Positions 19,932 through 57,372 of a DNA stretch of 64,000 nucleotides are shown piece after piece. The notes beneath the pieces are model-generated. The model ran no database searches. It saw nothing but the letters and a program-made list of their open reading frames with translations, and was not told where the DNA came from. The translations under genes and the position numbers were made by a program. Position 1 is the first letter of the stretch. Every line of letters begins with the position of its first letter. Source of the DNA: Escherichia phage vB-Eco-KMB26; sequence record OR539218.1, one strand, 5' to 3'.

Positions 19932-21358
19932 TAAAATTTTAATTCATTTGCCAAAGCATCTAACTGAGCTCGAGCGGATTCGTTTCTTTGATAGCGATTC
20001 TGTTCAGCCTGAATTTGCTGTGAACCTGCTACTTCGTTCACTTCAGTTGGAGTAGAATCTTGTTCAATTTCTACCCATTTCTGATTTCCTTTTTGAACAC
20101 CCATCAAAAACTTATTCCATTTATTCTTATCACCGTATCGTGATTTGATTTGCTTAATGAGTTGTTGTTCAGCAGCTGCTAGCTCCTCGGTTTCAATGAC
20201 CGCAAGCATAAAATCAGCTGTTGCTGGAAGACCGGCAGATTCTGCAATATCGCTCATGTTAACATCAGAAGAATCCCAAGCTTGTTTACCAACCTGTGCT
20301 GCAGTCCAAAGAACAGTTTCGGTTTCAACAGCAAGAGCACGTAATTCCTCTGCAATGGCTTTAACAGTTGTGTAACTATTTTCTGAGTAAACTCTAATGC
20401 GGCAAGATTTACAAATACCCAGATAGTCGACAATAATGATTGTTGGAACAAAATTCTTCTTGAGCTTTAATTCGTTTAAAAGCGATCGAAATGTATTAGC
20501 ATCTGCTCCACCAGTAGGATACTGTTTAACTATTAAACGACCGAGAGTAGATTTCTCGCGCCATTTTTCCATTTTTCCTTTATACTCAGCGTAAGAAATA
20601 TGCCCGTCATCAATGTCATCAAGAGAAACATCAAGCATATTAGCATCAATACGCTTAGCACAGACTTCTTCTGCCATTTCCATGGAAATGTAAAGAACAT
20701 TATGTCCGAGCTGCAAATAATCTGCTGCCAATGAACACAGACCTAATGACTTACCGACGTTAACACCAGCCATTAAAACGTTCAGTGTTCCAGTTTCAGC
20801 TCCACCTTTAGTAATTTTATTTAGAATTTTGAGTCTAAATGGAACCTTACGAGCTTTATTCATATAAGATAGCCAACGTGCTTCGTAGTCATCCATCCAA
20901 TCATGACCAACGTAACTATCAAATGAAATTGATAATGCTTGGCGCATGATGTCAGGAATAGCACCTACATCTGGCATTTTCTTATTTCGTTTTTCCGGAG
21001 GAAGCTCAGCATTAGTTTGAATTTCGATTATTTTAGACGTAGCATTAAACATCGCCCTTTGCTGAACATATTTTTCTGTTTCTTTTATTAACCAACTGTG
21101 GTCTTCCGGAGAATCAGCCAGTTTTGAAATAAGTGTTTTTACACCAGAATATTCTGTTTCAGTAAATGAACTATTTTCTAATGCAACATTTAACGCATTA
21201 ATAGATGGAACGCTATGATACTCATTAACATGAGATTTAATTAATTTGAATGTATTTTTAGCTGGACCACTTTCAAAATATTCTGAATCCATATATGGCC
21301 AAACTTTTGAAAAATAAGCTTGATCAAATATGAGATGAGAAAGAATAATTTCTACCAC
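19931..21358 (-). CDS. 41: replicative DNA helicase gp41 (DnaB family)
   Basis: 475 aa, Walker A GVNVGKS; size matches T4 gp41. Confidence 0.9.
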   Translation of the reverse strand: MVEIILSHLIFDQAYFSKVWPYMDSEYFESGPAKNTFKLIKSHVNEYHSVPSINALNVALENSSFTETEYSGVKTLISKLADSPEDHSWLIKETEKYVQQRAMFNATSKIIEIQTNAELPPEKRNKKMPDVGAIPDIMRQALSISFDSYVGHDWMDDYEARWLSYMNKARKVPFRLKILNKITKGGAETGTLNVLMAGVNVGKSLGLCSLAADYLQLGHNVLYISMEMAEEVCAKRIDANMLDVSLDDIDDGHISYAEYKGKMEKWREKSTLGRLIVKQYPTGGADANTFRSLLNELKLKKNFVPTIIIVDYLGICKSCRIRVYSENSYTTVKAIAEELRALAVETETVLWTAAQVGKQAWDSSDVNMSDIAESAGLPATADFMLAVIETEELAAAEQQLIKQIKSRYGDKNKWNKFLMGVQKGNQKWVEIEQDSTPTEVNEVAGSQQIQAEQNRYQRNESARAQLDALANELKF

Positions 21359-21367
21359 ACTTACTCC

Positions 21368-21730
21368 TTAAAAGAATTTAAACTTTTTCTTTGACCTTTT
21401 ATTGAATGCATCTTGCAGTTGCATTGTAATACATTTTTCTACATGAGGAGCTAACTCAGCTTTTCTTTCTTGATCAAGAACAGCAAAGTCCATTACAACC
21501 TTTCCATCAACCCAATCCAGTTTAGTTACATACACTATATGTGTAGAACCATCTTCTAGTTTAATGACAATCTCCTGGATAACATTTTCCATAGCGGATT
21601 TAATTATCTTAAGAGACTCATTAAAAAGACGTTCTTTTCTTTCTTCTTCCCCCTCCGAAGAGGGGGATTCATCGATAATTTCTAGATCTAAATCTAAATC
21701 ATCTTTATTCATTAAATTCTTCCATATCAC
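21368..21730 (-). CDS. 40: gp40-position protein
   Basis: 120-aa ORF between 41 and uvsX; positional. Confidence 0.55.
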   Translation of the reverse strand: MIWKNLMNKDDLDLDLEIIDESPSSEGEEERKERLFNESLKIIKSAMENVIQEIVIKLEDGSTHIVYVTKLDWVDGKVVMDFAVLDQERKAELAPHVEKCITMQLQDAFNKRSKKKFKFF

Positions 21731-22880
21731 TTAACTGTTCGAGGTCAGTTTCTAAATCAGCAGCTGATTTACTTTTACTTTCTGGAGATTTAAATTTTTC
21801 AACCTTTGAGTTAATCAATTCATCAACTTCAGCTTCAACAATTTCATTACTATCAATAGCACCTAACTGATAAGCACGTTTAATAGCATCTCGGAATGGT
21901 TGATGCTTAAATAAAGGACCCCAGAATGTAGTGCAGTTAGTATCTTTTGCACGCCAAGATTTTTCTTCGCGAATCATCTCGCCGGTTTCTTCATCAAGAA
22001 ATTCACGAGCATACCAACCATTTTTAGGTTTTACCACAAATCCTAATTCTAGAGCCATATCTAACAATCCAGAATAAGGATCGATACCACCGTCAAATTT
22101 AACATCAATAAAGAATTTACTTTTTTCTTTAACGGTACGAGATTTTTCTACATTTAGAACAAATTGATACCCCTGAAGATCAGAACCATCTTTAATCTGA
22201 CGCTTACCGATAATGAATACGGTATCAGCCGAATACATTACGCCTGTACCACCTGTCATCACGGTTTTACTAAACATTTCAATGGTTTCAATTGTATGGT
22301 TAACTGCAACACATGGAATATTTTTAATGCTAAAATAAGGAGTAACAATACGGAATAATGACTTCAGTGATTTAGCACGAGTCATATCTGCCACAGATTT
22401 TTCATTCAAGGCATCTTCAGTTTCTTTCTTAGAAGCCATATTACCAATTGAATCGATGAATACAATAACTTTTTCACCACGCTCAATAGTTTCAAGCTGA
22501 TTCACCATATCAATTTTCAGCTGTTCAACTGACTGGATTGGCGTATGAATTACTCGTTCTGGGTCAACTCCCATAGACTTAAGATAAGCCGGAGTGATAC
22601 CAAACTCTGAGTCATAGAACAAACAGATAGCATCAGGATACTTATTCAAATAAGCTGCTACCATTGTCAGTGACATATTAGATTTAAAATGTTTAGAAGG
22701 CCCTGCGAAAATAGTTAAACCAGACTGCATACCACCGTCCAACGCACCGCTAATTGCAATATTCAGCATTGGAATTTTAGTACGAACCACATCCTTTTCA
22801 TTAAAGAACTTGCTTTTAGTAAGCTCTGCAGTCATTTTAGAAGTGGAAGCTTTAATCAAACGGGATTTTAAATCAGACAT
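21705..22880 (-). CDS. uvsX: UvsX recombinase (RecA/Rad51 family)
   Basis: 391 aa with Walker A (GPSKHFKS) and RecA-like core; size matches T4 UvsX. Confidence 0.9.
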   Translation of the reverse strand: MSDLKSRLIKASTSKMTAELTKSKFFNEKDVVRTKIPMLNIAISGALDGGMQSGLTIFAGPSKHFKSNMSLTMVAAYLNKYPDAICLFYDSEFGITPAYLKSMGVDPERVIHTPIQSVEQLKIDMVNQLETIERGEKVIVFIDSIGNMASKKETEDALNEKSVADMTRAKSLKSLFRIVTPYFSIKNIPCVAVNHTIETIEMFSKTVMTGGTGVMYSADTVFIIGKRQIKDGSDLQGYQFVLNVEKSRTVKEKSKFFIDVKFDGGIDPYSGLLDMALELGFVVKPKNGWYAREFLDEETGEMIREEKSWRAKDTNCTTFWGPLFKHQPFRDAIKRAYQLGAIDSNEIVEAEVDELINSKVEKFKSPESKSKSAADLETDLEQLSDMEEFNE

Positions 22881-22996
22881 TATATTTTTCCATAGGCAGC
22901 ATTATATTTTACTCATGTTTATAATAAAGGGTATTGTTATACCCAGAGTTTAACTACATCATATTTAATAATGAGATAATTATATCACCTTATCAT

Positions 22997-23110
22997 TTAG
23001 CATTTACTTTTTGATTTCTTACTTTCATAAAGGTCATACAGATACAATCCAGCAAGACTAACTGCGGTAAATATTCCTAAGCCAGTAATGAATAATAAAG
23101 GTCCTAACAT
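22997..23110 (-). CDS. small single-pass membrane peptide
   Basis: 37-aa ORF not in track (MLGPLLFITGLGIFTAVSLAGLYLY...) with GAGGT Shine-Dalgarno. Confidence 0.35.
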   Translation of the reverse strand: MLGPLLFITGLGIFTAVSLAGLYLYDLYESKKSKSKC

Positions 23111-23122
23111 ATTAACCTCAAA

Positions 23123-24199
23123 TTAAGCGGTGATATCGAGAACGCGAAGAAGCTCTTCTTGCCATTCTGATTTTAAACTTTGATACTTAAATAGGGTTTG
23201 ATGTTGTATTGTAATCAATTCCCGCCTCAAGCACTCATTGGTTTTTAACTCATTTACTAAAGTTTCAAAATCATTTTTATTCTTAACGTAGAATCTAGGG
23301 TCGTCAATAATAAGATGCTCGCTATCAAACTCTTCATCGATAAGCATCACAGCATCTGATGCCATGGCCTCCCAGACTCTAATTGTGATAAAATTATCAT
23401 TGTAATCTTTATCACCAATGACTATAGTTGCTATCGCTTGGCTATTCGTGTCAATAACCAAATTTGATGCTATTTTTTGACTGAATGATGGAGCTACATT
23501 CCACGGAAATTTAGGATTTTTAAACTGTTTCTCTTTAATAGTTCCAAACATTTTAATATTTAAATTGGTATCAAAAAGAAATTCAACTATTTTAGACTCT
23601 CGTTGCCCACCTCTAAACGCGCCGCAGTACACAACGTCATATTTTTTAATAGTTTGATTCGCAGGTTTAAGTTTCTGTGAATGAATAAAATATCTATCTA
23701 CAGGAAAGTAATCATACTCAAATTCTTTACCGTATCTTTCGGTTGTTTTCTTATGAGCCTTTTTAGCAATTTCTAGATTTCTGCCCTGAGATATTACTTT
23801 AAAGTCAGATGACACAAATAAGTCTTCATCTTTGTATTCACTTGAAAATTTCTTTCTGCGAACTACCGGAAGAACTTGCATAAATCCAAGACGGCCATCA
23901 GTAAAAATATAATAAATTTTACTTCTATATTCAGCCATCAATTTATATGAATTTAAAACGATTGGATTTTTCTTTCCACCGAAGAAATTGATAGCGCCAT
24001 TAATTACTATTAGTCTATCGTATGAATTTATATCAGTTACTACATCAAATGATATAGTGTATTCAGTATTTCGCATTGAAATTATATCAACGGAATGCCC
24101 TAATTCAGTTAAAGACCTGCCTATTAAAATAGTTTCGGCTGATGATACTATTTTAAAATCACTCACAGTATTACTTAAATTTAGAATAGCTATTTTCAT
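23123..24199 (-). CDS. HMC-DNA glucosyltransferase, beta-gt family (diverged from T4 beta-gt)
   Basis: 358 aa collinear with recalled T4 beta-gt (MKIAI...DRLIV...NFFGG...GQRESK...ITLRVWE...ASDAVMLIDEEFD), roughly half identical by eye. Confidence 0.7.
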   Translation of the reverse strand: MKIAILNLSNTVSDFKIVSSAETILIGRSLTELGHSVDIISMRNTEYTISFDVVTDINSYDRLIVINGAINFFGGKKNPIVLNSYKLMAEYRSKIYYIFTDGRLGFMQVLPVVRRKKFSSEYKDEDLFVSSDFKVISQGRNLEIAKKAHKKTTERYGKEFEYDYFPVDRYFIHSQKLKPANQTIKKYDVVYCGAFRGGQRESKIVEFLFDTNLNIKMFGTIKEKQFKNPKFPWNVAPSFSQKIASNLVIDTNSQAIATIVIGDKDYNDNFITIRVWEAMASDAVMLIDEEFDSEHLIIDDPRFYVKNKNDFETLVNELKTNECLRRELITIQHQTLFKYQSLKSEWQEELLRVLDITA

Positions 24200-25053
24200 G
24201 ATATTTCCGTAACTTCAACTTTGTGAATAGCATTAAACTTATGAAATGCTTCTGATTTTTCTTTACGCGAAACGCACATGCGAAGAACCTTTAATGGCTC
24301 GTCTTCTTCACCCAACGATTTTCGTTTTTCAATATTAGAAGTTTTCCAACGAGCTTGCTCTGGAAACTCTCTATTGATTTGCTCAAGCGCTCTATTATGT
24401 TTAGAATTACTACGAATTGAACTACACCCGCCAGGAGCTTGTGCTTTTCCAGATACAACTAGATATTTGAACAAGGCCAAATGCGGATAACCTTGATTAA
24501 TTAAATTGAGAAATGCATACATATCTTCGCATAAATCAATTTTTCCATACCCAATTTGTTCTGTCGTAAGTTTTCCGAGGTCATACCATGTATTCGTGAA
24601 TCCATATGAATTTTCACGATAATTACCCCAAGATGAAGTAATTTTAAAAATTGGTAGACGAGCATGACCGTGATAATACCCGCAATCCATGGCATCTTCA
24701 ACATATTGAATCAATTCATAGAACTGTTCACGAGTTAATTGATTAATTTTATCTACGCGCCGTTTATCGTCTCTCTTTCGTATTGAACTCATACGGATAG
24801 TAGTATCATCGTCAATCATCCAGATTCGTTGACCTGCATACATATCAGTAATTGCTTTACGAGTACCGGCAATTCCATTAACATCATCAGGAATAGTTAC
24901 AATTTTAGCTCTAGACCCATAGGCATCATAATAAGCTTTTTCTTCGTGTTCACGCACTATAATATGCGGTTCATAATCAGTCGGAAACATATCAAGGGCA
25001 GAAACTGCCCCGACACGTTGATAACTTGGAATTACGAATTGAATCATTTCCAC
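24196..25053 (-). CDS. second glycosyltransferase, GT-A-like
   Basis: 285 aa with N-terminal VIPSYQR and DxD-type WMIDDD motif; lies between the beta-gt homologue and gene 42. Confidence 0.55.
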   Translation of the reverse strand: MEMIQFVIPSYQRVGAVSALDMFPTDYEPHIIVREHEEKAYYDAYGSRAKIVTIPDDVNGIAGTRKAITDMYAGQRIWMIDDDTTIRMSSIRKRDDKRRVDKINQLTREQFYELIQYVEDAMDCGYYHGHARLPIFKITSSWGNYRENSYGFTNTWYDLGKLTTEQIGYGKIDLCEDMYAFLNLINQGYPHLALFKYLVVSGKAQAPGGCSSIRSNSKHNRALEQINREFPEQARWKTSNIEKRKSLGEEDEPLKVLRMCVSRKEKSEAFHKFNAIHKVEVTEIS

Positions 25054-25784
25054 TCACCTTTATAGTCTTTTTTCACAATATGAGTTTCGCCAGTATTCCA
25101 CCAATGATCAACCAAATAAAAATGACGAGAATATACATGAAGACTTCCAACATTCCATATAATAGAACCTGCTTTATACTGACGAGTTGAATCGCCTGCA
25201 TTCAAATCAGATACTAATTTATCTAATACGTATTTTTGCCATGCATAATCATTACGGAATCCGAAGACCACGTCATTTGAGCGCATGCTTACTACCGCAT
25301 TGACTTTCTTATCACGAATCAAGTACTGTACTGTATTAGTACACATGAAATCTGACATACCATCTTTATTGTAGTCAAACTGCATAGATGGACGAGTATA
25401 AATCATGATACCACGTCGAGAATCAGGATTTTGACCAAGTTCAGCTAAACACATATCATACTGGGCATAGTTATCTTCTGACCAAATAGCCCAACCATAA
25501 TTCGAGTTAATTTCGCCTTTAGAAGATGCTACCTGCTGCCAAATCTTTGGTGTTTCACCTGGAATATCTTTAACAAACAAACTCTTAGATTTATACCATT
25601 CAAGTTCACGCTGAATGTATTCATCATTAAGAGCGCCAAAAATAAACGGTTCATCTGCTACAAATGATGCGCCAATAATTTCAATAGTTTTAACACCAGT
25701 TTTATCAACTACGAAATCTTTTTCTTTTAATGCAAGCCCCAAATGAAGACGGATTTCTTCAACTGTCATAGAGTCACTAATCAT
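25044..25784 (-). CDS. 42: dCMP hydroxymethylase gp42
   Basis: 246 aa, thymidylate-synthase-like fold; size matches T4 gp42. Confidence 0.9.
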   Translation of the reverse strand: MISDSMTVEEIRLHLGLALKEKDFVVDKTGVKTIEIIGASFVADEPFIFGALNDEYIQRELEWYKSKSLFVKDIPGETPKIWQQVASSKGEINSNYGWAIWSEDNYAQYDMCLAELGQNPDSRRGIMIYTRPSMQFDYNKDGMSDFMCTNTVQYLIRDKKVNAVVSMRSNDVVFGFRNDYAWQKYVLDKLVSDLNAGDSTRQYKAGSIIWNVGSLHVYSRHFYLVDHWWNTGETHIVKKDYKGEWK

Positions 25785-25791
25785 TTAAACC

Positions 25792-25941
25792 TCAATTGAT
25801 ACATTCATATTTAACTTGTAACAGTAATAAACTCCAACCTAAAATAATAGTTGGAATCATAAGAGGAACCGTTACACTATAGTATATACTTATTATAATC
25901 ATCAAGATTAAAAGCAACACTGCTATAATTTTGCTTTTCAT
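25792..25941 (-). CDS. small hydrophobic membrane peptide
   Basis: 49-aa ORF not in track (MKSKIIAVLLLILMIIISIYY...); ATGA overlap with the imm stop. Confidence 0.4.
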   Translation of the reverse strand: MKSKIIAVLLLILMIIISIYYSVTVPLMIPTIILGWSLLLLQVKYECIN

Positions 25942-26189
25942 TCCTTCTCTCTGATGATAATTACCTGATTTGGTTGTGCAGACTTTTTAGTTTCACCCGC
26001 AATTGACCAAATAAATGTAATAAACCAACCAATAATTGACCAGTTAAACAGTAAAGATGTGAAAAAGATTCCTACTGTCGATTTTGACCCACGCATCAAA
26101 GCAATAAACCATGGAAGCATGTATATAATAATAGCCAACACGCCTGAAACTAAAACCATAAAAATTGAACCTGCTACTAAAGTTTCCAT
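25938..26189 (-). CDS. imm: immunity (superinfection exclusion) membrane protein Imm
   Basis: 83 aa, two transmembrane segments; size and position match T4 Imm. Confidence 0.75.
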   Translation of the reverse strand: METLVAGSIFMVLVSGVLAIIIYMLPWFIALMRGSKSTVGIFFTSLLFNWSIIGWFITFIWSIAGETKKSAQPNQVIIIREKE

Positions 26190-26196
26190 GTTTTCC

Positions 26197-26577
26197 TCAC
26201 TTAGTCAAATTTTTTACGCATGAATTATAAGAATTCACTACATACTCCATCGGAGCATTTTTACCAGTACGCCATTGGTAATTATTAGCCCAATTAGCCC
26301 AAATTTCGGCGCAGTAGTTTTCAATTTTTTCTTCGTGTGTAATTACATCAGAATTACGATATGCTTGAGCAGATTCATCTGGACGAATAGCTTCGTCAAA
26401 ATTCGCCTGCATTTGTTCGACTGTTTGCTTTGGAGCTTCTTTATAACACTTGACATTAGGATTATAAAATTTGCTTGAACAGTTTACAATTTTTCCTACA
26501 TCAGACTGATTTACTACCGGTCCTTGAGCTACACAACCAGTAAGACCTAATGCAATAACCAAAATAGCGATTTTCAT
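26197..26577 (-). CDS. lipoprotein-like secreted protein
   Basis: 126 aa with signal peptide and lipobox (LGLTGC). Confidence 0.6.
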   Translation of the reverse strand: MKIAILVIALGLTGCVAQGPVVNQSDVGKIVNCSSKFYNPNVKCYKEAPKQTVEQMQANFDEAIRPDESAQAYRNSDVITHEEKIENYCAEIWANWANNYQWRTGKNAPMEYVVNSYNSCVKNLTK

Positions 26578-26587
26578 AATAATTTCC

Positions 26588-26824
26588 TCAAATGCAAGTA
26601 GTAATTACTCCAGTAGTGCTTATGCAGGTATTACCCATTTGCACACCTAAAGATCCATTTGTATTCACATGAAGATTATCATCAATTTTAACTGATATTT
26701 TACCATTAGTGTGAATAACGATGCTAGATTCAATCACAGGTTGAGTATCATTTTCAACACTAACAAATGGAACTGCTGCTAATGCAACTAAACAAACTGC
26801 TAAGCATCCCATAACAATTTTCAT
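26588..26824 (-). CDS. small secreted protein
   Basis: Track ORF trimmed to MKIVMGCLAV... (78 aa) so the tandem promoters lie upstream; GGAG Shine-Dalgarno. Confidence 0.55.
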   Translation of the reverse strand: MKIVMGCLAVCLVALAAVPFVSVENDTQPVIESSIVIHTNGKISVKIDDNLHVNTNGSLGVQMGNTCISTTGVITTCI

Positions 26825-26861
26825 TTTATTCTCCAAATCCGTATCAGTAGTTGATAGTTGT

Positions 26862-26891
26862 ATAGTACCATGGAAGAACAGGGATGTAAAC
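26862..26891 (-). promoter_or_regulatory. T4-type early promoter, copy 1 of tandem pair
   Basis: Minus strand GTTTAC, 17 bp, TACTAT. Confidence 0.55.
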
Positions 26892-26907
26892 AGTTGTTGA
26901 TAGTTGT

Positions 26908-26937
26908 ATAGTACCATGGAAGAACAGGGATGTAAAC
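26908..26937 (-). promoter_or_regulatory. T4-type early promoter, copy 2 of tandem pair
   Basis: Identical to copy 1, 46 bp upstream. Confidence 0.55.
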
Positions 26938-27024
26938 AGTTTTGTGAAAATTTTTTAGGGAATTCTAAATGTCCAGAATCATCTGTTTTTCATAAGTATA
27001 GATTTATATTACTTGTATGAAAAA

Positions 27025-27040
27025 GGGACCCGGAGGTCCC
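27025..27040 (-). terminator. tetraloop hairpin 3' of gene 43
   Basis: gggacc-cgga-ggtccc, 14 nt after the gene 43 stop. Confidence 0.55.
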
Positions 27041-27053
27041 TAGATTTATTCTA

Positions 27054-29750
27054 TCAGCCAAACAGGAAGTCTAACGAAGCTTTTTCTTCATAGTCCATAC
27101 CAGCCGATTCACACATGCCCGCAAGCGGTTTAACAAACGATTTTTGGAACAAAGTTGAGTAGTCAATCCAAGACAGTACGTCAGAACGAATTTCTTTTGG
27201 AAGTTCTGTACCCGACGGCCAAGCAATGCATTTGTCACCAAATGGATTTCCTTCACGCAATGGAAGAACCATTACTTTATTTCCATCCAAAATTGGAGCT
27301 ACACCTAAACCGCTAACAGCTCGACGATAAGTTAGCACACCGCGAATATGGAACGGGCATTTAAATCCTGGCCAACCTTTATCATCATATTTCGCTATAT
27401 CGTTCGCAGTTTTTACTTCAGCAATAACTTTATAGTCAAGTTGACGATATTCTTTCTCGAAGTTCTTGTAGTATTCTTGGACAGACTCTTCACCTTCTTG
27501 AAGAATACGACGAATACTTTCTTCGAGAGCTTCTTGGACCGCTTTAGGCGTTGAACTCTGCTGAGTTTCCATACCCATGATTTTTAGATGCGGTTCAGCA
27601 AATCGTTTATCTTCCATATCATAAACGTTCAGAGCATAACGCTTTTTCGCTTTCCAAAATCCACCAATACCCTTTGAACCAAGTGGAGGGCAAGAAATAG
27701 CTTCACGGTCCATATGCATCAGATGCTCGCGGTTATTCATATAATCACATAACTCACGATATGCAACATCAATCATAGGTTCCATCTTTTTCTTACCGAA
27801 CTGATTCATAAATTCAACCAAATCGTTCTGCTCTTTGAATCGGTCAAGACCAACTTTTTCAATAACTTTATCTACACAAACATATACCGAATCAGTATCA
27901 CCTGCTGCGATGAAATCTTCGCCATTAGTTCCACATACTTTATTCAGATACTCATTAATTTTACGAGCAATCCACTGAATACCAACTTGGCCGAAAATTG
28001 TGATAGCAGTAGCATTTCGCAAATCATAGTAACGGAAATGAATATTACCAAGAGCACCATAAAGACTGTTAATAAGAATTTTACGGTTCAGCTGATTTGT
28101 ATTAGCAAGTGTAGCAGCTTTTTCACATTCCTCAATCAGACTATTAAGAACAGATTCAGTATAATTCGACAGTTCATTTAAGAAATCATCACTGAACTTA
28201 ACATATCGTTCAACTTCTGGTTTAGTTGAACAAGACCCTGCGCCTTTCATAATAATCTTTTTAATAGCTTCGGCATTCATTTCTTCAGCGAACATTTTCT
28301 TTTTCCAGTCTTTACGCTGGAAAAATACTTTAGCGATTTCCTTTGGAATGATACCTTCTTGATGCTTATCATACATCCATCCATTCGGAGAACAAGAATA
28401 TTCATCACTCGGTTTAGGAGCTGTTCCTGCGATATATTCATGAATTGGATGAACTTTAAACTGTCCACGAATAGTCTCAGGACTAATGTTAACCTGACGA
28501 ATAATGCTCGGATACAGAGACGTCAAGTCAAAACTCATAATATATCGACGAGCAATTGGTTTAGGTTCAAATACGAATGCACCCGGAAAACTCTGTTTAA
28601 CGTGCGAACCCTGTTGAGGAATAACCTTATGTTCACCTTTCAATGAGTTAAAAATAATAGCATCCCAAGTTTTAATAGGACTCATTACACCGGAAAAAGG
28701 CATTTTAGCGTAATAAGACATACTTAAAACTAGATCGATAAACCCGCGAATTTTATCAATTGCTTGAACTGATTCTACGTCAATGATGTTATAACTAATG
28801 TATCGTTGATGATTAGTCTCACGAAGTTTATTAATAGGACCGTCGTATGGTAATTTACCTTTTTTGGTTTCATGTTGAGCAACTGATTCCAAAGAGAATG
28901 ACGGCAAATTAGTAAAAGCGAATTTCTTGTACAAATCTAAATAATCAAGAATAGATACGCCATCAATAGAATAAATTTCTTTGCTACCGTACGTATTTTG
29001 AATTAGTTTAGATTTTACTCGACCGATTGGAGAGAAGCGTTTCATACTGCGTTCACCGAGAACCATTTTAACGCGATTCATGATATACGGAACGTCAAAT
29101 CCCTCAATATTCCAACCAGTAAAAATAGCAGGTCGTTTCTGTTCCCAGAGATTGATATATTCCATGAGCATATCACGCTCATTATCGAATGGCATATAAA
29201 TTACTCGGTCAAGAATTTCTTGAGGAACTTCATCACCACCTTCACAGTCAAGCTTAGCAGCTAACTTTGCATCCCATTTTGATACTGAACCGTACATTGA
29301 ATTCAAAAGGTCGAAAACATAAAAACGATCATCAATTGAATCATAATGAGTGATAGCATCAATTTCATATTCAGCTTTCATTGGATCAGGAAATTTATCA
29401 CCAGTAACCTCAATGTCACAGTTAGCTACACGAACAAATTTTCGGTCATAAACAATTTCTGAACCATACGTATCACTGATATAAGCGAGTTTAAAATCGT
29501 TCATACCAAGAGCTTCGAGACCGATGTCTTCCATTCGCTTCATCCAATCTCGAGCATCTTTCATTGATAGAAATTTTTGAGGAGCGCAATTTTTACCATA
29601 GATGTCTTTGTACTTTGACTCTTCCTTACAATGTCTAAACATAGTTGGAAGATATTCTACTTCGCGAGTACGTTCCTTTCCATTTTCATCAATATAACGT
29701 TCAACAATGTTATTTCCGACTGTTTCGATAGAGATATAAAATTCTTTCAT
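27054..29750 (-). CDS. 43: DNA polymerase gp43 (family B, 3'-5' exonuclease plus polymerase)
   Basis: 898 aa with exonuclease FDIE motif and polymerase DTDS motif; size matches T4 gp43. Confidence 0.95.
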   Translation of the reverse strand: MKEFYISIETVGNNIVERYIDENGKERTREVEYLPTMFRHCKEESKYKDIYGKNCAPQKFLSMKDARDWMKRMEDIGLEALGMNDFKLAYISDTYGSEIVYDRKFVRVANCDIEVTGDKFPDPMKAEYEIDAITHYDSIDDRFYVFDLLNSMYGSVSKWDAKLAAKLDCEGGDEVPQEILDRVIYMPFDNERDMLMEYINLWEQKRPAIFTGWNIEGFDVPYIMNRVKMVLGERSMKRFSPIGRVKSKLIQNTYGSKEIYSIDGVSILDYLDLYKKFAFTNLPSFSLESVAQHETKKGKLPYDGPINKLRETNHQRYISYNIIDVESVQAIDKIRGFIDLVLSMSYYAKMPFSGVMSPIKTWDAIIFNSLKGEHKVIPQQGSHVKQSFPGAFVFEPKPIARRYIMSFDLTSLYPSIIRQVNISPETIRGQFKVHPIHEYIAGTAPKPSDEYSCSPNGWMYDKHQEGIIPKEIAKVFFQRKDWKKKMFAEEMNAEAIKKIIMKGAGSCSTKPEVERYVKFSDDFLNELSNYTESVLNSLIEECEKAATLANTNQLNRKILINSLYGALGNIHFRYYDLRNATAITIFGQVGIQWIARKINEYLNKVCGTNGEDFIAAGDTDSVYVCVDKVIEKVGLDRFKEQNDLVEFMNQFGKKKMEPMIDVAYRELCDYMNNREHLMHMDREAISCPPLGSKGIGGFWKAKKRYALNVYDMEDKRFAEPHLKIMGMETQQSSTPKAVQEALEESIRRILQEGEESVQEYYKNFEKEYRQLDYKVIAEVKTANDIAKYDDKGWPGFKCPFHIRGVLTYRRAVSGLGVAPILDGNKVMVLPLREGNPFGDKCIAWPSGTELPKEIRSDVLSWIDYSTLFQKSFVKPLAGMCESAGMDYEEKASLDFLFG

Positions 29751-29810
29751 AGATATTCCTTAGTTTATAGCCCGAGTTATTAGGCTCTTGATATATTATA
29801 CTCCAAATAA

Positions 29811-29824
29811 GGGGCCGAAGCCCC
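29811..29824 (-). terminator. UUCG-tetraloop hairpin
   Basis: ggggc-cgaa-gcccc between the 87-aa ORF stop and gene 43. Confidence 0.55.
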
Positions 29825-29828
29825 TTGC

Positions 29829-30092
29829 TTAAATTAGTACTATTTGTCGGGTGAAAATTGTCAATCCATCTGCATTAATTGACTTAACGACTGCAGTAAA
29901 GTGTTTTTGTTCTGGGTGAACTAATTTTTGAAATTCTACCTGAAATTTTAGTTGAAGGTTTTCTGGTAAATCGAAAAGTGTTTCTGTTGCAGAAAGATTA
30001 TATTTTTCTTTAAGAGACGCCATGTATTCTTGCGGAGTTATAGCAGTCATATTAATTACCAATCGTATATTTAGGAACGAGTTTCCATTCAT
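29829..30092 (-). CDS. small hypothetical protein
   Basis: 87-aa ORF; the true start is probably an internal ATG since the 5' end overlaps regA. Confidence 0.45.
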   Translation of the reverse strand: MNGNSFLNIRLVINMTAITPQEYMASLKEKYNLSATETLFDLPENLQLKFQVEFQKLVHPEQKHFTAVVKSINADGLTIFTRQIVLI

Positions 30093-30420
30093 GTTTTTGT
30101 TTAAAAGAAATAACTCGGAAGTTATTAGTTAAATCTTTCATAAAAGTTCTTTGACCAGGAACGATTTCAATCAGTCCCCAATCTTCTAATAGCCATGCAA
30201 TCGAATCACGACGAACTTCATCTTCTTCTGTCATTTCAACCTGGCGACCATCCATACGAAGCATTTCTTTAAAATGAACGATATAGTATAGTCCTTTTTT
30301 CTGAAGAATATGACAGGACTGATACAGAACTTTATCTTTATTATTAGCAATTCCCATACGAGTCAAAGTTTCTTTTACTTTCAGAAAATCTTCAGGTTTT
30401 TTAAGAGTAATTTCAATCAT
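30052..30420 (-). CDS. regA: translational repressor RegA
   Basis: 122 aa matching recalled T4 RegA (MIEITLKKPEDFLKVKETLTRMGIANN...). Confidence 0.9.
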   Translation of the reverse strand: MIEITLKKPEDFLKVKETLTRMGIANNKDKVLYQSCHILQKKGLYYIVHFKEMLRMDGRQVEMTEEDEVRRDSIAWLLEDWGLIEIVPGQRTFMKDLTNNFRVISFKQKHEWKLVPKYTIGN

Positions 30421-30421
30421 T

Positions 30422-30985
30422 TTACCATTCCAATGCTAGTTTTTTGAGTTGTTTCTGTTCTTTTACGTTCTTAGTCACTTCTTTCAAAAAATCATCCGTG
30501 ACTAAACCTTTTAGTTCTTTTAATACTAAAGGAAGTTTTCCATTTTTAGTAAGAATTGATTTATAGTTAATTGCATCATTTGTATTAACTTGATACCGCT
30601 TAGCAAGTAACTTAATAATCAATACTTCGGTGGAATCTTCAACCAGTTTTGCCCATTTACCATATCTTTTACCACGAGGAACTGCAGCCATTAGATAATT
30701 AAAATGAGCTTCATCACTTAATCCAGAACCGATTAAATTCATAGCATATACAGCTGGCATGCACTCTGGAAATTGTGATAATGCATTTTCAACCATGAAT
30801 TTTGAATAATCTTTTTGAGCAATAGAGCATTTAGTTTTATTATTAATAGCTCCAATTATTTCAAAAAATTCATTTTCAGCTTTTTCTTTAAAAGAATCAG
30901 CAGCGGATTGGACAGCTGTCCAATCTTTTGAATACCAAGCAACTTGATGCTCGTTTAATTGAATATCATCTTCAAATAAGCTCAT
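30422..30985 (-). CDS. 62: clamp-loader subunit gp62
   Basis: 187 aa, position and size as in T4. Confidence 0.85.
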
Positions 30986-30986
30986 A

Positions 30987-31946
30987 TCACTTCCACTGCA
31001 TTTCGCATGCTAATTGAATGAAAAGATAAGCTAAATGCAATTCAGTATTAGCTGCAATACCATGATACTGATTATTTTCGCCTACAATTTCGTACATACG
31101 AATAATACTCTGCGGAGTTACACGTGAATAGATTTCTTCGGCAAGTTTACCAACGAACCACGAATAATCAGCTGCATATTTTGGTGCTAAAGCTCTGAGT
31201 TGTTTAACATCTTTATTTTTGAGAGACTCAAGAACATCATCAATAGCACCACGATCGTTAGTAACCAGTGATAAAATACCAGCATCCAAAACACCTTTAG
31301 ATGAATAACTATCGAGCTCGCCAATAGTTTTACGAAAATCAGGAAAATTCTTTTTAACCAAAGCTGCTACAACTTTCATATCAGCTATAGCAATTCCTTC
31401 ATGCTTACAGATTTCAGTCAATCGACGAATCATCTGCTTCATCATTTCAATTTTATCTTCATCGGTCGGTTGACCGAACGTAATAACTCGGCAGCGTGAC
31501 TGAAGTGGTTTAATAATACCATCAATATTGTTAGCAGTAATAATAATACTACAGTTTGAACTATAAGCTTCCATAAAGGAACGAAGATGTCGCTGAGATT
31601 CTGCTAAACCTGAACGGTCAAATTCATCAATAACGATTACTTTTTGACGACCATCAAATGAAGCGGCGCTGGCAAAATTAGTCAAAGGACCGCGAACGAA
31701 ATCAATTTTACAATCTGATCCATTCACAAACATCATATCAGCATTTACATCATGACACAATGCTTTTGCTACAGTTGTTTTACCTGTTCCTGGAGAAGGA
31801 GAATGAAGAATAATATGTGGAATCTTACCTTTACTTGTAATAGATTTAAAGGTTTCTTTATCAAAGGCGGGAAGAATACATTCATCGATAGTAGATGGAC
31901 GATATTTCTGTTCAAGAATGTGTTCTTTTTCATTTACGGTAATCAT
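30987..31946 (-). CDS. 44: clamp-loader ATPase gp44 (AAA+)
   Basis: Trimmed to the ATG after GAGGAA (319 aa); Walker A GTGKTT and DEFD Walker B. Confidence 0.9.
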
Positions 31947-31979
31947 AATTTCCTCATTCAAGTTTTAGTGTAAATTATA

Positions 31980-31995
31980 AAGGGCCGAAGCCCTT
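31980..31995 (-). terminator. UUCG-tetraloop hairpin 3' of gene 45
   Basis: agggc-cgaa-gccct right after the gp45 stop. Confidence 0.6.
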
Positions 31996-31997
31996 TA

Positions 31998-32684
31998 TTA
32001 AAAATCGTGGGTAGAATCAGCTTCAAGAGCTACTACATAATTCGCATGTTCACCTTCAAATTTAGCAGCGCCTTGTTTACCTTTTGCCCAAAGCAGAAGT
32101 TTATAATTTCCTGGTTGCATTTTCATATTTGCCATATTGATAATGAAATTAAATGTGTTTTCACCATCATAATCACCAAGAGTCAAAGAATATTTAACAC
32201 GGGTCAGAGCAGAATCTTCTACTTTATTAAAACCGTTAATTACGATTTTACCTTCTTTTACTGTGATAGCAATTGTATCAATCTGCAGACCACGAGATAC
32301 ACGCAACAGCTGTTGAAGGTCTTCAGCTTTAATTTCGGTAACAACAGATGCTACCGGGAATGGAATTGGTTTATTAGGAGCAACTACTGTACTCGGATCG
32401 GCTGCTGGCCAAAAAATTGTTGAACGGGCATCAGCAATTTTAATATTTCCATCTTCTGACTGGGAAATTTCTGCATCATCATTAACTAGAGACAGAATAC
32501 CGAGAAAACCGTTCAAATCGTAAATTGCTACATCAAAATCAATAACGTCAGAAATATTTGCTTCCGCATAAGTTGTACCATTAACTGCGCGAGTCATAAT
32601 AAATTGACCTGATTTAAGCATAATACCAGAGTTAATAGTAGCGAAATTTTTAAGCAGAGCAGTAGTATCTTTAGACAGTTTCAT
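31998..32684 (-). CDS. 45: sliding clamp gp45
   Basis: 228 aa; size and position as in T4. Confidence 0.9.
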   Translation of the reverse strand: MKLSKDTTALLKNFATINSGIMLKSGQFIMTRAVNGTTYAEANISDVIDFDVAIYDLNGFLGILSLVNDDAEISQSEDGNIKIADARSTIFWPAADPSTVVAPNKPIPFPVASVVTEIKAEDLQQLLRVSRGLQIDTIAITVKEGKIVINGFNKVEDSALTRVKYSLTLGDYDGENTFNFIINMANMKMQPGNYKLLLWAKGKQGAAKFEGEHANYVVALEADSTHDF

Positions 32685-32713
32685 GTAATTTCCTTCAATT
32701 CAAATGAGATTTA

Positions 32714-32740
32714 ATTTTATAACTAATTAAATAAAGCAAT
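32714..32740 (-). promoter_or_regulatory. MotA-dependent middle promoter upstream of gene 45
   Basis: Minus strand MotA box ATTGCTTTA, 12 nt, TAAAAT -10. Confidence 0.55.
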
Positions 32741-33129
32741 TAACGATTAAAATCAGCTGCGATTGTTTCGGCAACAATTTGAGCAGCAACAATCAGACGT
32801 TCATCTGCATTGCCGCAATATTCATCTTCAAGGCGTTCACCACATGAAGTCATAATAAATTTAGCACCGGCGTTTAGGGATTCTGTAGTATGTTTGCGCA
32901 TTAGTTCAATCCATTTATTACTTACTTCACGATCGATAGCTTCATAATACGCATGACGAGCAGGTGCAGATTTAATTTTGTTCTGAATAACTTCCATTGC
33001 GTTATCAGAAAGAGACAAAACCCATGCTCGACGAATTTTATTTTGGTTTTGTGGATTTGATTCAGAACGCACGTGTTTTGGCTGAATATCTTTTACATCA
33101 ACAGTATAATTCACAGTAATTTTAGTCAT
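32740..33129 (-). CDS. rpbA: RNA polymerase-binding protein RpbA
   Basis: 129 aa, position and size as in T4. Confidence 0.7.
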
Positions 33130-33138
33130 AATACACCT

Positions 33139-33327
33139 TTAGTCATAATAATCAGTAACAGTCCAAGCTTCATTTCTATTGGACATTATTTTTGTATATT
33201 CTGCTTTAAATGCATTCCTAAGCATAGATTCAGTAACTATATGCTCTTCATTGGAAAAATTATTTCTCAGAATATATCGTTTTATTTCAGGAATAGTTAA
33301 TAGATGCTGTCCAGTTGAATATTCCAT
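33139..33327 (-). CDS. small protein (45.2 position)
   Basis: 62-aa ORF. Confidence 0.55.
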   Translation of the reverse strand: MEYSTGQHLLTIPEIKRYILRNNFSNEEHIVTESMLRNAFKAEYTKIMSNRNEAWTVTDYYD

Positions 33328-33344
33328 GTTTTTCCTCCATAGAG

Positions 33345-33370
33345 ATTATACTCTAATAAATTAAAGCATA
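33345..33370 (-). promoter_or_regulatory. MotA-dependent middle promoter
   Basis: Minus strand TATGCTTTA box, 11 nt, TATAAT. Confidence 0.5.
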
Positions 33371-33382
33371 ATCTCTTATAAA

Positions 33383-35065
33383 TTAAACCATTACAGTAAA
33401 TCGACCAACTTTCTTCATTTGAAGATGCTGACCGTATTCTTGTGGGTCATGGTCTTTATGCGAAATTATAAAAACATTAGTGTTTTTCATTGAATTTATA
33501 ATATTAGCTACACCTTTAATACCTTCGGCATCAAATGACCCATCAAACACTTCATCGAGTATTAATGTACTAATACTAACACCAGATACAATAGAAGCAA
33601 TATCACGCCAAGTAAATAAAAGAGCAATATCGATTCGTGCCTTTTCACCTTCACTAAATGAAGCATAACTAAAATCTTCGCGACCACGGGATTTAATTGT
33701 CTCATTAAATTCTTCATCTAATGTAAACACATAATCCGCTTCCATTATTTTAAGATAATGGTTAATCTGCTTATTAAATAATGGAATGTACTTTTTAATA
33801 ATAGCACCTTTAATACCAGAATCTTTGAGCATATCAGTCAAAATTCCTCGGTGGTATTTTTCCATTACTAAATTAGTTTTTGTCTTAACAATTTTATCAA
33901 GTTCTTCTTGAAGCAGTGCTATTTCATCAGCATGGTCAATAAACTCAGAAGATGCTTTTTCTATAGCCGCTTTAACCTTTTTAGCTTTATCTACTGCTGC
34001 GATCAGAGATTGCTTTTTATTGCGAATATCATTTGCCAACGACTGTTGGGTTTTAATATTATCTCGGTATTCATTAACAAGAACTTTTAAATTATCACGA
34101 TGTGTTGAAAGCTGTTCAAACGAATGCGTACATTCAGAAACTTTATCTTTAATTTTAGAAACAACTTTATCACCGGAACTCAATTGTGACAAACAGGTTG
34201 GACATAATCCACCTTCGTGATACATATTAATGACTTTATTATACGAGTCAATTTTTGATTTAATTAAAACTGCTTCTTGACCGATTTTATTAAATGCATC
34301 AGTCGGGTCTTCATCTAAAACAATATTAACTAATCTTTCATTAGCTTCTTCTATTTCCGATTTTAGCGTTCTAGCTTCTTTTGCCAAATCATCATACATA
34401 TTTTGAAGACGTGTAAGATTGTCACCTGTTAATTTTTTCTGGCGTTCAACGTTATCATTATATATTTTAATTTGTTGGATAATACTATCTTTTTTAACGT
34501 CAAGCACTTGGTTTTGTGAATTTAATTCACGTATTAGTGCTTTATTAAGCTTATCCATTTCAGCTAATGTTCCTACCTCAAGCAGGTCTTCCACAAGCTT
34601 TCTTCGCGCAGGGGTCGACAAACCCATGAAAGGGGTATACCCTGCTGTACCAAGGACAACAATCTGCTTGAAACTGGCATATGACATTCCGATAAGCTGT
34701 TCAAATTCTGCTTGGAAATCTTTACTGCTGGCAGATTCATTAAGACGTGTACCGTTAACGGTGATTTCAAAAACGTTCGGTTTTTGTCCTCTTTTGATAT
34801 AGTACTTTTTCTCATCATATTCCATCCACAGTTCAACTAAAAGTTCTTTCTTATTTGTGCTGTTTATTAATTGACCTTTCTTTACATCACGAAATGGCTT
34901 GCCAAAAAGCCCAAATGTGATGGCTTCTAACATAGTAGACTTACCACCGCCATTTCGTCCAGTAATAAGAGTTTTTTGAACCTTATCTAATTGAATGTCA
35001 ATAGGATTTCCACCTACTGACATTATATTTTGATACCTAACTCGGTTTAGTTTAAAATTCTTCAC
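33383..35065 (-). CDS. 46: recombination/repair exonuclease subunit gp46 (Rad50/SbcC-like ATPase)
   Basis: 560 aa, Walker A GRNGGGKST, coiled-coil middle, C-terminal signature and Walker B regions. Confidence 0.9.
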   Translation of the reverse strand: MKNFKLNRVRYQNIMSVGGNPIDIQLDKVQKTLITGRNGGGKSTMLEAITFGLFGKPFRDVKKGQLINSTNKKELLVELWMEYDEKKYYIKRGQKPNVFEITVNGTRLNESASSKDFQAEFEQLIGMSYASFKQIVVLGTAGYTPFMGLSTPARRKLVEDLLEVGTLAEMDKLNKALIRELNSQNQVLDVKKDSIIQQIKIYNDNVERQKKLTGDNLTRLQNMYDDLAKEARTLKSEIEEANERLVNIVLDEDPTDAFNKIGQEAVLIKSKIDSYNKVINMYHEGGLCPTCLSQLSSGDKVVSKIKDKVSECTHSFEQLSTHRDNLKVLVNEYRDNIKTQQSLANDIRNKKQSLIAAVDKAKKVKAAIEKASSEFIDHADEIALLQEELDKIVKTKTNLVMEKYHRGILTDMLKDSGIKGAIIKKYIPLFNKQINHYLKIMEADYVFTLDEEFNETIKSRGREDFSYASFSEGEKARIDIALLFTWRDIASIVSGVSISTLILDEVFDGSFDAEGIKGVANIINSMKNTNVFIISHKDHDPQEYGQHLQMKKVGRFTVMV

Positions 35066-51805: not shown

Positions 51806-51833
51806 TTTGTGTTCCTCCGTAGTTGATAGTTGT

Positions 51834-51863
51834 ATAGTACCACAGAGGAACAGTCTTGTAAAC
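51834..51863 (-). promoter_or_regulatory. T4-type early promoter
   Basis: Minus strand GTTTAC, 17 bp, TACTAT, followed by ACAACTATCAAC. Confidence 0.55.
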
Positions 51864-51865
51864 CA

Positions 51866-52180
51866 CTAAAAGAAACTTCTTTCACAATTTTTTCCACTGA
51901 ACCATGCGCTTACCGCTTTCTTAGTCTCAGGAGCAGTGTTATCCATAAACCATTCAAAGGCAGCCTTTTTATGATTCTGGAGGGCTTCTCGGGCTTTAAT
52001 CTGCTCACGGTCTATTAACACTAACATATGAGCCTTTCTTGTCACCATGGGCTTCTTATGATTTTTTGAATACTCCCAGTCATTTGTCCATCGCATTGTC
52101 GTTGCGAACTTAAATACTGCTTCTTTAATTTTAGTTTCGTAAATTTCACGAGCCTTTGAGTATAACATCATTACCTCCAT
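51866..52180 (-). CDS. hypothetical protein
   Basis: 104-aa basic ORF. Confidence 0.5.
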   Translation of the reverse strand: MEVMMLYSKAREIYETKIKEAVFKFATTMRWTNDWEYSKNHKKPMVTRKAHMLVLIDREQIKAREALQNHKKAAFEWFMDNTAPETKKAVSAWFSGKNCERSFF

Positions 52181-57342: not shown

Positions 57343-57372
57343 ATAGTACCACAGCTCAAACGGAAAGTAAAC
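57343..57372 (-). promoter_or_regulatory. T4-type early promoter
   Basis: Minus strand GTTTAC, 17 bp, TACTAT. Confidence 0.55.

Follow-up and report, generated by a model that had tools for sequence, protein, structure and literature searches.

The stretch of DNA analysed here (64,000 nt, referred to as the window) was by its sequence identified as part of a T4-like (Tequatrovirus) genome and apparently has the orientation of the T4 reference. Tequatrovirus genomes by the hundreds were found to match the window at 95–99%, and Escherichia phage UPWr_E2 was shown to be the closest relative, with 99.6% identity over a 14-kb stretch. The locus of interest lies between gene 43 and the imm genes, and the genes, terminator and promoter elements of this locus are on the minus strand. 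Gene 43, encoding the DNA polymerase (898 aa), occupies 27054–29750, almost equal to its coordinates in T4 (27197–29893). It is followed by an intrinsic terminator consisting of a G+C-rich hairpin and a T-run (27024–27041), which is annotated as a terminator in phage fPS-65 and was kept in all nine genomes that were aligned (see below). A distance of 57 nt separates this hairpin from an A/T-rich tract, which in turn precedes the promoter region. The minus-strand sequence TATAAATC (27001–27008) lies past the gene 43 terminator and ahead of the early promoter and differs by 1 base from the T4 late-promoter consensus, TATAAATA; this late-promoter-like sequence was also conserved in 9/9 aligned genomes. 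An Rfam scan of 26400–27200 gave nothing near gathering scores.

The first gene downstream of the promoters is an ORF of 78 aa (26588–26824), which is preceded by the Shine-Dalgarno sequence GGAGAA (26829–26834) 5 nt upstream of its ATG at 26824. The product has a hydrophobic N-terminus, showed no Pfam match and belongs to a PHROG of unknown function (phrog_4189). The original prediction described the promoter as aimed at a secreted-protein gene; the ORF and its Shine-Dalgarno sequence are indeed present, whereas the word secreted goes back only to the hydrophobic N-terminus. The ORF is followed by a homologue of imm.1 (126 aa, DUF5481; 26197–26577), with an N-terminus, MKIAILVIALGLTGC, that resembles a lipoprotein signal, and by imm (83 aa; 25938–26189), assigned by homology to the superinfection immunity membrane protein. 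Beyond imm, dCMP hydroxymethylase (gene 42) and then a glucosyltransferase are encoded, a gene order as in phage T4. The 78-aa ORF, imm.1 and imm form a small envelope-protein operon behind the duplicated promoter.

The 46-nt unit GTTGATAGTTGTATAGTACCATGGAAGAACAGGGATGTAAACAGTT was found at 26850–26895 and again at 26896–26941, and the claim of a perfect tandem duplication was borne out, with the two copies lying back to back and being identical at 46/46 positions. Tandem Repeats Finder reported a period of 46, 2.1 copies, 98% matches and a score of 187 for the span 26845–26941. With up to 3 mismatches allowed, the window contained no further copy of the unit, and none of 100 dinucleotide-preserving shuffles matched it, so that a chance origin of this exact repeat is not expected. 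The distance between gene 43 and the 78-aa ORF is 229 bp here compared to 183 bp in single-copy relatives.

On the minus strand the unit reads AACT-GTTTAC-atccctgttcttccaTGG-TACTAT-acaact-A-tcaac. T4 early promoters have GTTTAC at −36 to −31, the −10 hexamer at −12 to −7 and an A-rich tract at −40 to −44 (PMC1524935), and they have been described as UP/−35/TGn/−10 promoters (PMC2988021). In the numbering of PMC1524935 the unit spans exactly −40 to +6. The distal (upstream) copy at 26896–26941 comprises the −35 sequence GTTTAC (26937–26932), TGn (26916–26914), the −10 sequence TACTAT (26913–26908) and a predicted +1 A at 26901, and the proximal (gene-side) copy at 26850–26895 comprises the same parts at 26891–26886, 26870–26868, 26867–26862 and 26855, respectively. 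Both copies contain TGG directly before TACTAT, and in both the TAnnnT hexamer begins 18 nt after GTTTAC. Each copy had been put forward as a complete GTTTAC-N17-TACTAT promoter; the full T4-type geometry is present in each, but the spacer counted from GTTTAC is 18 nt, and it is 17 nt only if the promoter is read as TTTACA-N17-TACTAT.

This architecture is common to many sites in the window. GTTTAC-N18-TAnnnT was found at 21 sites, all on the minus strand, 19 of them besides the two copies; most of the 21 are located just upstream of a Shine-Dalgarno sequence and an ATG, and two (45514 and 40766) have weak core scores and are possibly chance matches. A looser scan allowing spacers of 17–19 nt gave a sole match on the plus strand (39366), with a 17-nt spacer and the weak hexamer TAGTTT. 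In the record of fPS-65 the single-copy orthologue carries the computational annotation 'predicted early promoter', and a terminator is annotated immediately before it. The assignment as an early promoter therefore stands: by geometry, position and conservation the duplicated element is a T4-type early promoter, with activity predicted for either copy. Besides, the sites at 57372, 53785, 51863, 26937 and 26891 make up a sub-family with the common sequence GG-TACTAT-ACAACTATC, covering the −10 hexamer and start region. These short dispersed repeats could be recombination substrates.

The two copies are not equivalent, as only the distal copy keeps an A/T-rich upstream element. This region, agaattccctaaaaaattttcacaa (26942–26966), serves the distal copy only and holds 'ttttcacaa', a motif that recurs upstream of two further early promoters (53785 and 41211). 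A profile of positions −65 to −41 was built from the window's other early promoters with only the two copies held out, so that the scores of the other sites are inflated and not comparable with those of the two copies. On this profile the upstream region of the distal copy, aaaaaattttcacaa, scored +2.8 bits (76% A+T), and that of the proximal copy −14.2 bits (64% A+T). Because the duplicated unit ends at −40, the proximal copy was left without the A/T-rich element usual for T4 early promoters: its positions −41 to −86 are the distal copy itself, and the −10/+1 region of the distal copy takes the place of the upstream element. Judged from its score of −14.2 bits, the proximal copy may be weak. 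The predicted start sites (26901 and 26855) are 46 nt apart, and the leaders to the ATG at 26824 measure 77 nt from the distal and 31 nt from the proximal start.

The duplication also brings an ATG at 26917 into the reading frame of the 78-aa ORF. The mechanical ORF list accordingly contained an ORF of 109 aa (26588–26917), the first 31 codons of which are owed solely to the 46-bp duplication. This candidate was rejected: its ATG corresponds to position −16 of the distal promoter and could be transcribed solely by read-through from gene 43, and the extension is thus almost certainly spurious. Gene callers may nevertheless annotate it.

The intergenic region was aligned for nine genomes (the window, UPWr_E2, fPS-65, PaulHMueller, Shfl2, IsaacDaniel, PST, T4 and T2). 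The orthologous promoter was found as a single copy at the same position in every relative in this alignment, T4 included, and ten further independent contigs (ENA metagenomes, Logan assemblies and NCBI) contained one copy each; with the core pattern, exactly one copy was matched in 17/17 loci of relatives. The hexamers and the start region were invariant across the relatives while the spacer showed at least seven alleles, a pattern that indicates selection on promoter function. The 'atccct' spacer allele is present in both copies and is common to PST and IsaacDaniel; that of UPWr_E2 differs from the allele in the window.

Searches of larger collections gave the same picture. A query of 541 nt was spanned in 495–496 nt in the best 40 of 535 matching phage records, i.e., these were 46 bp shorter than the query, two of them 45 bp shorter; in a more sensitive search, a query of 281 nt was spanned in 232–235 nt (46–49 bp less) in the best 12 records. 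A 50-nt probe centred on the junction of the copies gave no match among 50,697 phage records, compared with 459 records (142 at at least 99% identity) matched by a 50-nt control probe consisting of one unit and its native flank. Exact junction patterns were likewise absent from IMG/VR (two versions), from metagenome contigs and from GTDB (one genome per species). The single copy in relatives and the lack of junction matches show the duplication to be private to this genome, and it would thus be younger than any substitution in the unit. The comparison of copy number with related phages, proposed with the original prediction, therefore gave one copy in all genomes examined and a second only here, in agreement with the claim that the duplication is recent.

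A strict scan of IMG/VR for two GTTTAC-N18-TAYWAT sites 8–30 nt apart revealed no T4-type tandem early-promoter pair. The IMG/VR pair scan gave seven matches, of which five were unrelated short tandem repeats and two, L011 and L015, look like promoter pairs. Similar GTTTAC-N18-TAYWAT-like sites lie 56 nt apart in L011 (4415–4500; 27/30 identical) and 39 nt apart in L015 (882–950; 22/30 identical). Both pairs are possible older tandem promoter duplications.

The ancestral sequence at the boundaries of the repeat can be written as ...tatCAGTA[gttgatag...gtaaaCAGTT]ttgtg.... The sequence CAGTA at 26845–26849, directly adjoining the unit, is an imperfect direct repeat of the last 5 nt of the unit (CAGTT) and is a candidate microhomology. 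When 46-nt segments were placed arbitrarily in the window, only 4.1% had flanks matching at 4/5 positions or more, which favours a microhomology-guided event.

These boundaries also bear on the explanation that the second copy is an artefact of assembly or editing, which we regard as improbable. According to this explanation, a circularly permuted genome was assembled into a contig whose ends overlapped by k−1 = 46 nt and was then rotated untrimmed to the T4 start, so that the former contig ends would now form an exact 46-bp tandem repeat. It would account for a repeat that is mismatch-free and unique to this record, and the position of gene 43, close to that in T4, is consistent with rotation to the T4 start point. 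Besides, the exact gp43 and 78-aa ORF products were absent from the gene-position index, and thus no independent assembly was found there; exact-protein look-ups found imm.1 on record, but only in single-copy relatives. On the other hand, 46 nt is an unusual overlap length that fits only a k−1 overlap with k = 47; the overlaps left by SPAdes and MEGAHIT correspond to an odd k (for example 55, 77 or 127). The boundaries moreover carry the 4/5 flanking repeat and frame a complete promoter core. The rest of the region was free of assembly-type errors compared with the 99.6% identical UPWr_E2: the 14-kb alignment contained only SNPs and one hexamer-repeat indel, and no homopolymer errors. Moreover, the 92-bp structure fits within one short read and would be resolved directly by assemblers. 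We infer a physical second copy from the sequence of the record.

The indel in this alignment is a TCTAAA microsatellite (21681–21700, 3.3 copies) in which the window and UPWr_E2 are a single unit (6 bp) apart; it is another small slippage polymorphism. Within 20000–34000, all 42 substitutions relative to UPWr_E2 are located inside 24442–29682 (5.2 kb) and the flanks are identical. This segment, which involves the glucosyltransferase gene (24196–25053), gene 42, the imm genes and gene 43, is on the distribution of substitutions a mosaic patch.

The duplication probably originated by slippage or unequal exchange at CAGTA/CAGTT. On the minus strand, slipped-strand mispairing or unequal exchange would have occurred at the imperfect 5-bp repeat AACTG/TACTG, and the very active recombination system of the genome would have provided the setting. 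The junction base is a T (plus strand), which is not what simple slippage on CAGT predicts, so that a heteroduplex or mismatch step must be assumed. Efficient recombination of T4-type phages at homologies of less than 50 bp (Singer et al., 1982, as cited in PMC2839356) makes both gain and loss of a 46-bp repeat plausible. As a counterpoint, a direct repeat of 46 bp would be expected to be lost fairly easily by recombination in such a phage, and selection or a recent single-plaque bottleneck is required to account for its presence in the consensus.

The surroundings of the promoter also differ in gene content between close relatives. The window shares the 78-aa ORF with most relatives but not with T4 and PST, where the promoter, leader and Shine-Dalgarno sequence run straight into imm.1. 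On either side of this 247-bp difference stands the 8-bp direct repeat ATGAAAAT (26824–26817 and 26577–26570), with which both genes (the 78-aa ORF and imm.1) begin, and the difference looks like a microhomology-mediated deletion or insertion. In T2 a different gene is located downstream of gene 43, behind a promoter, leader and Shine-Dalgarno sequence of the 51863 type that are identical through the ATG, and in PaulHMueller a 51863-type spacer is joined to the leader of the 78-aa ORF. Thus, the suggestion that the locus marks a recombination hot spot was supported in the nine-genome alignment, in the sense of a recombination and gene-content breakpoint.

These arrangements in T2 and PaulHMueller, the latter with a chimeric spacer, indicate that promoter paralogues exchange between loci. 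They raise the alternative that the second copy was acquired not by local slippage but ectopically, in a PeSL-type recombination event whose partner was a paralogous early promoter or a co-infecting relative. Paralogues at 51863, 53785 and 57372 in the window share the −10 and leader sequence TACTATACAACTATC and are identical to the unit at 32–37 of 46 positions; the spacer allele of the closest relative, UPWr_E2, is moreover a different one. However, the two copies are identical to each other at all 46 positions, whereas the best paralogue, 51863 (51817–51867), shares 37/46 positions with the unit, with an identical −10 and leader. Furthermore, both flanks of the repeat are collinear with single-copy relatives, and the spacer allele lies within the wider mosaic block (SNPs from 24442 to 29682) rather than in a patch confined to the promoter. 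An ectopic source of the second copy is thus considered very improbable.

Taken together, we lean, at slightly better than even chances, towards a real, recent and private duplication of the core (−40 to +6) of a conserved sigma-70 early promoter, with two start sites of which the distal would be the stronger. The promoter would start immediate-early transcription of the 78-aa ORF, imm.1 and imm. As both cores contain every sigma-70 contact (−35, TGn and −10), both should bind the host polymerase, and host RNA polymerase could initiate at about 26901 and about 26855, giving two 5′ ends. The distal copy, with its retained A/T-rich element, should stay the stronger, and the proximal copy would act as a core-only −35/TGn/−10 promoter. 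Transcripts from the distal start would have the 77-nt instead of the 31-nt leader. No map of transcription start sites covering the T4 imm.1 promoter was found in the literature.

The duplication had been suggested to double promoter strength. Where the start sites of a tandem pair are separated by more than 35 bp, a model puts the output at 1–2 times that of one promoter (PMC8830795). A gain is thus in line with the model, but doubling is its upper bound. The output of synthetic tandem promoters can be attenuated via polymerase collisions (PMC11339919). With start sites 46 bp apart, a polymerase elongating from the distal promoter would meet one sitting on the proximal promoter. A gain of less than 2-fold in early transcription of the 78-aa ORF, imm.1 and imm is therefore more likely, by analogy with these systems, than a doubling; collisions with polymerase from the distal promoter could even cancel any gain.

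Such a cancellation is part of a further reading, in which the second copy is genuine but has no functional effect or does slight harm, having been fixed by chance at plaque purification as a transient slippage polymorphism. Essentially one copy would then be active, with output unchanged or reduced by interference. We consider this reading possible, if on the unlikely side. It agrees with the presence of the duplication in no other genome searched and with the lack of a T4-type tandem pair in the strict IMG/VR scan, which is expected if such duplications do not persist; the missing upstream element of the proximal copy and the attenuation possible in synthetic tandem promoters (PMC11339919) point the same way. 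In addition, the longer leader of the distal transcript brings in an AUG at 26871, the start of a 16-codon uORF whose terminal UGA overlaps the AUG of the 78-aa ORF, and a UUCUUCC stretch in this leader pairs with the Shine-Dalgarno sequence GGAGAA in the minimum-energy fold. However, the uORF has no Shine-Dalgarno sequence, and the folding energy of the long leader does not stand out from that of shuffled sequence (z = 0.09), so that hiding of the ribosome-binding site by the longer leader was rejected as evidence. The unit also frames the whole core promoter and start site, which only about 10% of 46-nt placements in the ancestral 183-bp region would do (an estimate from geometry).

At the opposite end, the duplication could be an adaptive regulatory mutation, in which a core-only promoter independent of alpha-CTD/UP contacts would prolong transcription of the immunity/envelope operon after ADP-ribosylation of alpha weakens UP-dependent early promoters. 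We regard this as very doubtful; if true, both the level and the timing of the exclusion of competing phages would be altered.

The duplication is a recent, strain-specific new allele of a known, well-understood element and not a new kind of system. Its main practical value is for annotation and quality control, and the record should be flagged for read-level verification before use as a reference. If real, it is a clean natural example of T4-type phages altering early gene dosage via duplication of a 46-bp promoter core, and it offers a simple comparison of one copy with two for interference between identical strong promoters and for what the upstream element contributes during infection. The locus itself is one more terminator-plus-promoter cassette at a gene-content breakpoint.

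Compared with known systems, the element is most similar to the T4 early promoters: GTTTAC at −36 to −31, an 18-nt spacer ending in TGn, TAnnnT at −12 to −7, an A start 7 nt downstream, and location on the minus strand upstream of a Shine-Dalgarno sequence and an ATG. In position and sequence it is orthologous to the T4 element between the gene 43 terminator and imm.1. It differs from these promoters in that the core is doubled here, and in that the second copy is without the A/T-rich upstream element. Spontaneous tandem duplications and amplifications in T4 (the classical rII duplications and the 'accordion' amplifications) are direct repeats that arise at short homologies and are unstable unless selected. 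They are made by the phage recombination and replication machinery and typically cover hundreds to thousands of bases, genes included, whereas the duplication described here covers 46 bp and only the promoter core.

The present pair has in common with closely spaced tandem promoters in E. coli (Chauhan et al., 2022, PMC8830795; Chauhan et al., 2024, PMC11339919) the co-directional sigma-70 arrangement and falls, by spacing, in the class of more than 35 bp. The promoter pairs of these papers are diverged and long established, or synthetic, in contrast to the identical, newly arisen cores found here; besides, the present promoters act in a phage that modifies the alpha subunit of the polymerase during infection, unlike the E. 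coli pairs.

The promoter-early stem-loop (PeSL) cassettes of T4-like phages (Arbiol, 2010, PMC2839356; Comeau, 2014, PMC4122927) contain promoters with the consensus TTTACW-N17-TAYWAT of the PST/T4 type (PMC4122927). A stem-loop terminator, an A/T-rich tract, TTTACA-N17-TACTAT, a Shine-Dalgarno sequence and an ATG are present in the same order here, and the element is likewise located at a gene-content difference between close relatives. Unlike PeSL cassettes, it adjoins a core gene (gene 43) and not a hyperplastic region, and PeSL-type recombination is indicated here indirectly, from chimeric spacer alleles. Extra, degraded −35/−10 copies at PeSL cassettes were put down to 'recombinational slippage' by Comeau et al. 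(PMC4122927). The extra copy found here is intact and perfectly spaced instead of degraded, and the present duplication would be a fresh, undegraded example of such extra −35/−10 copies.
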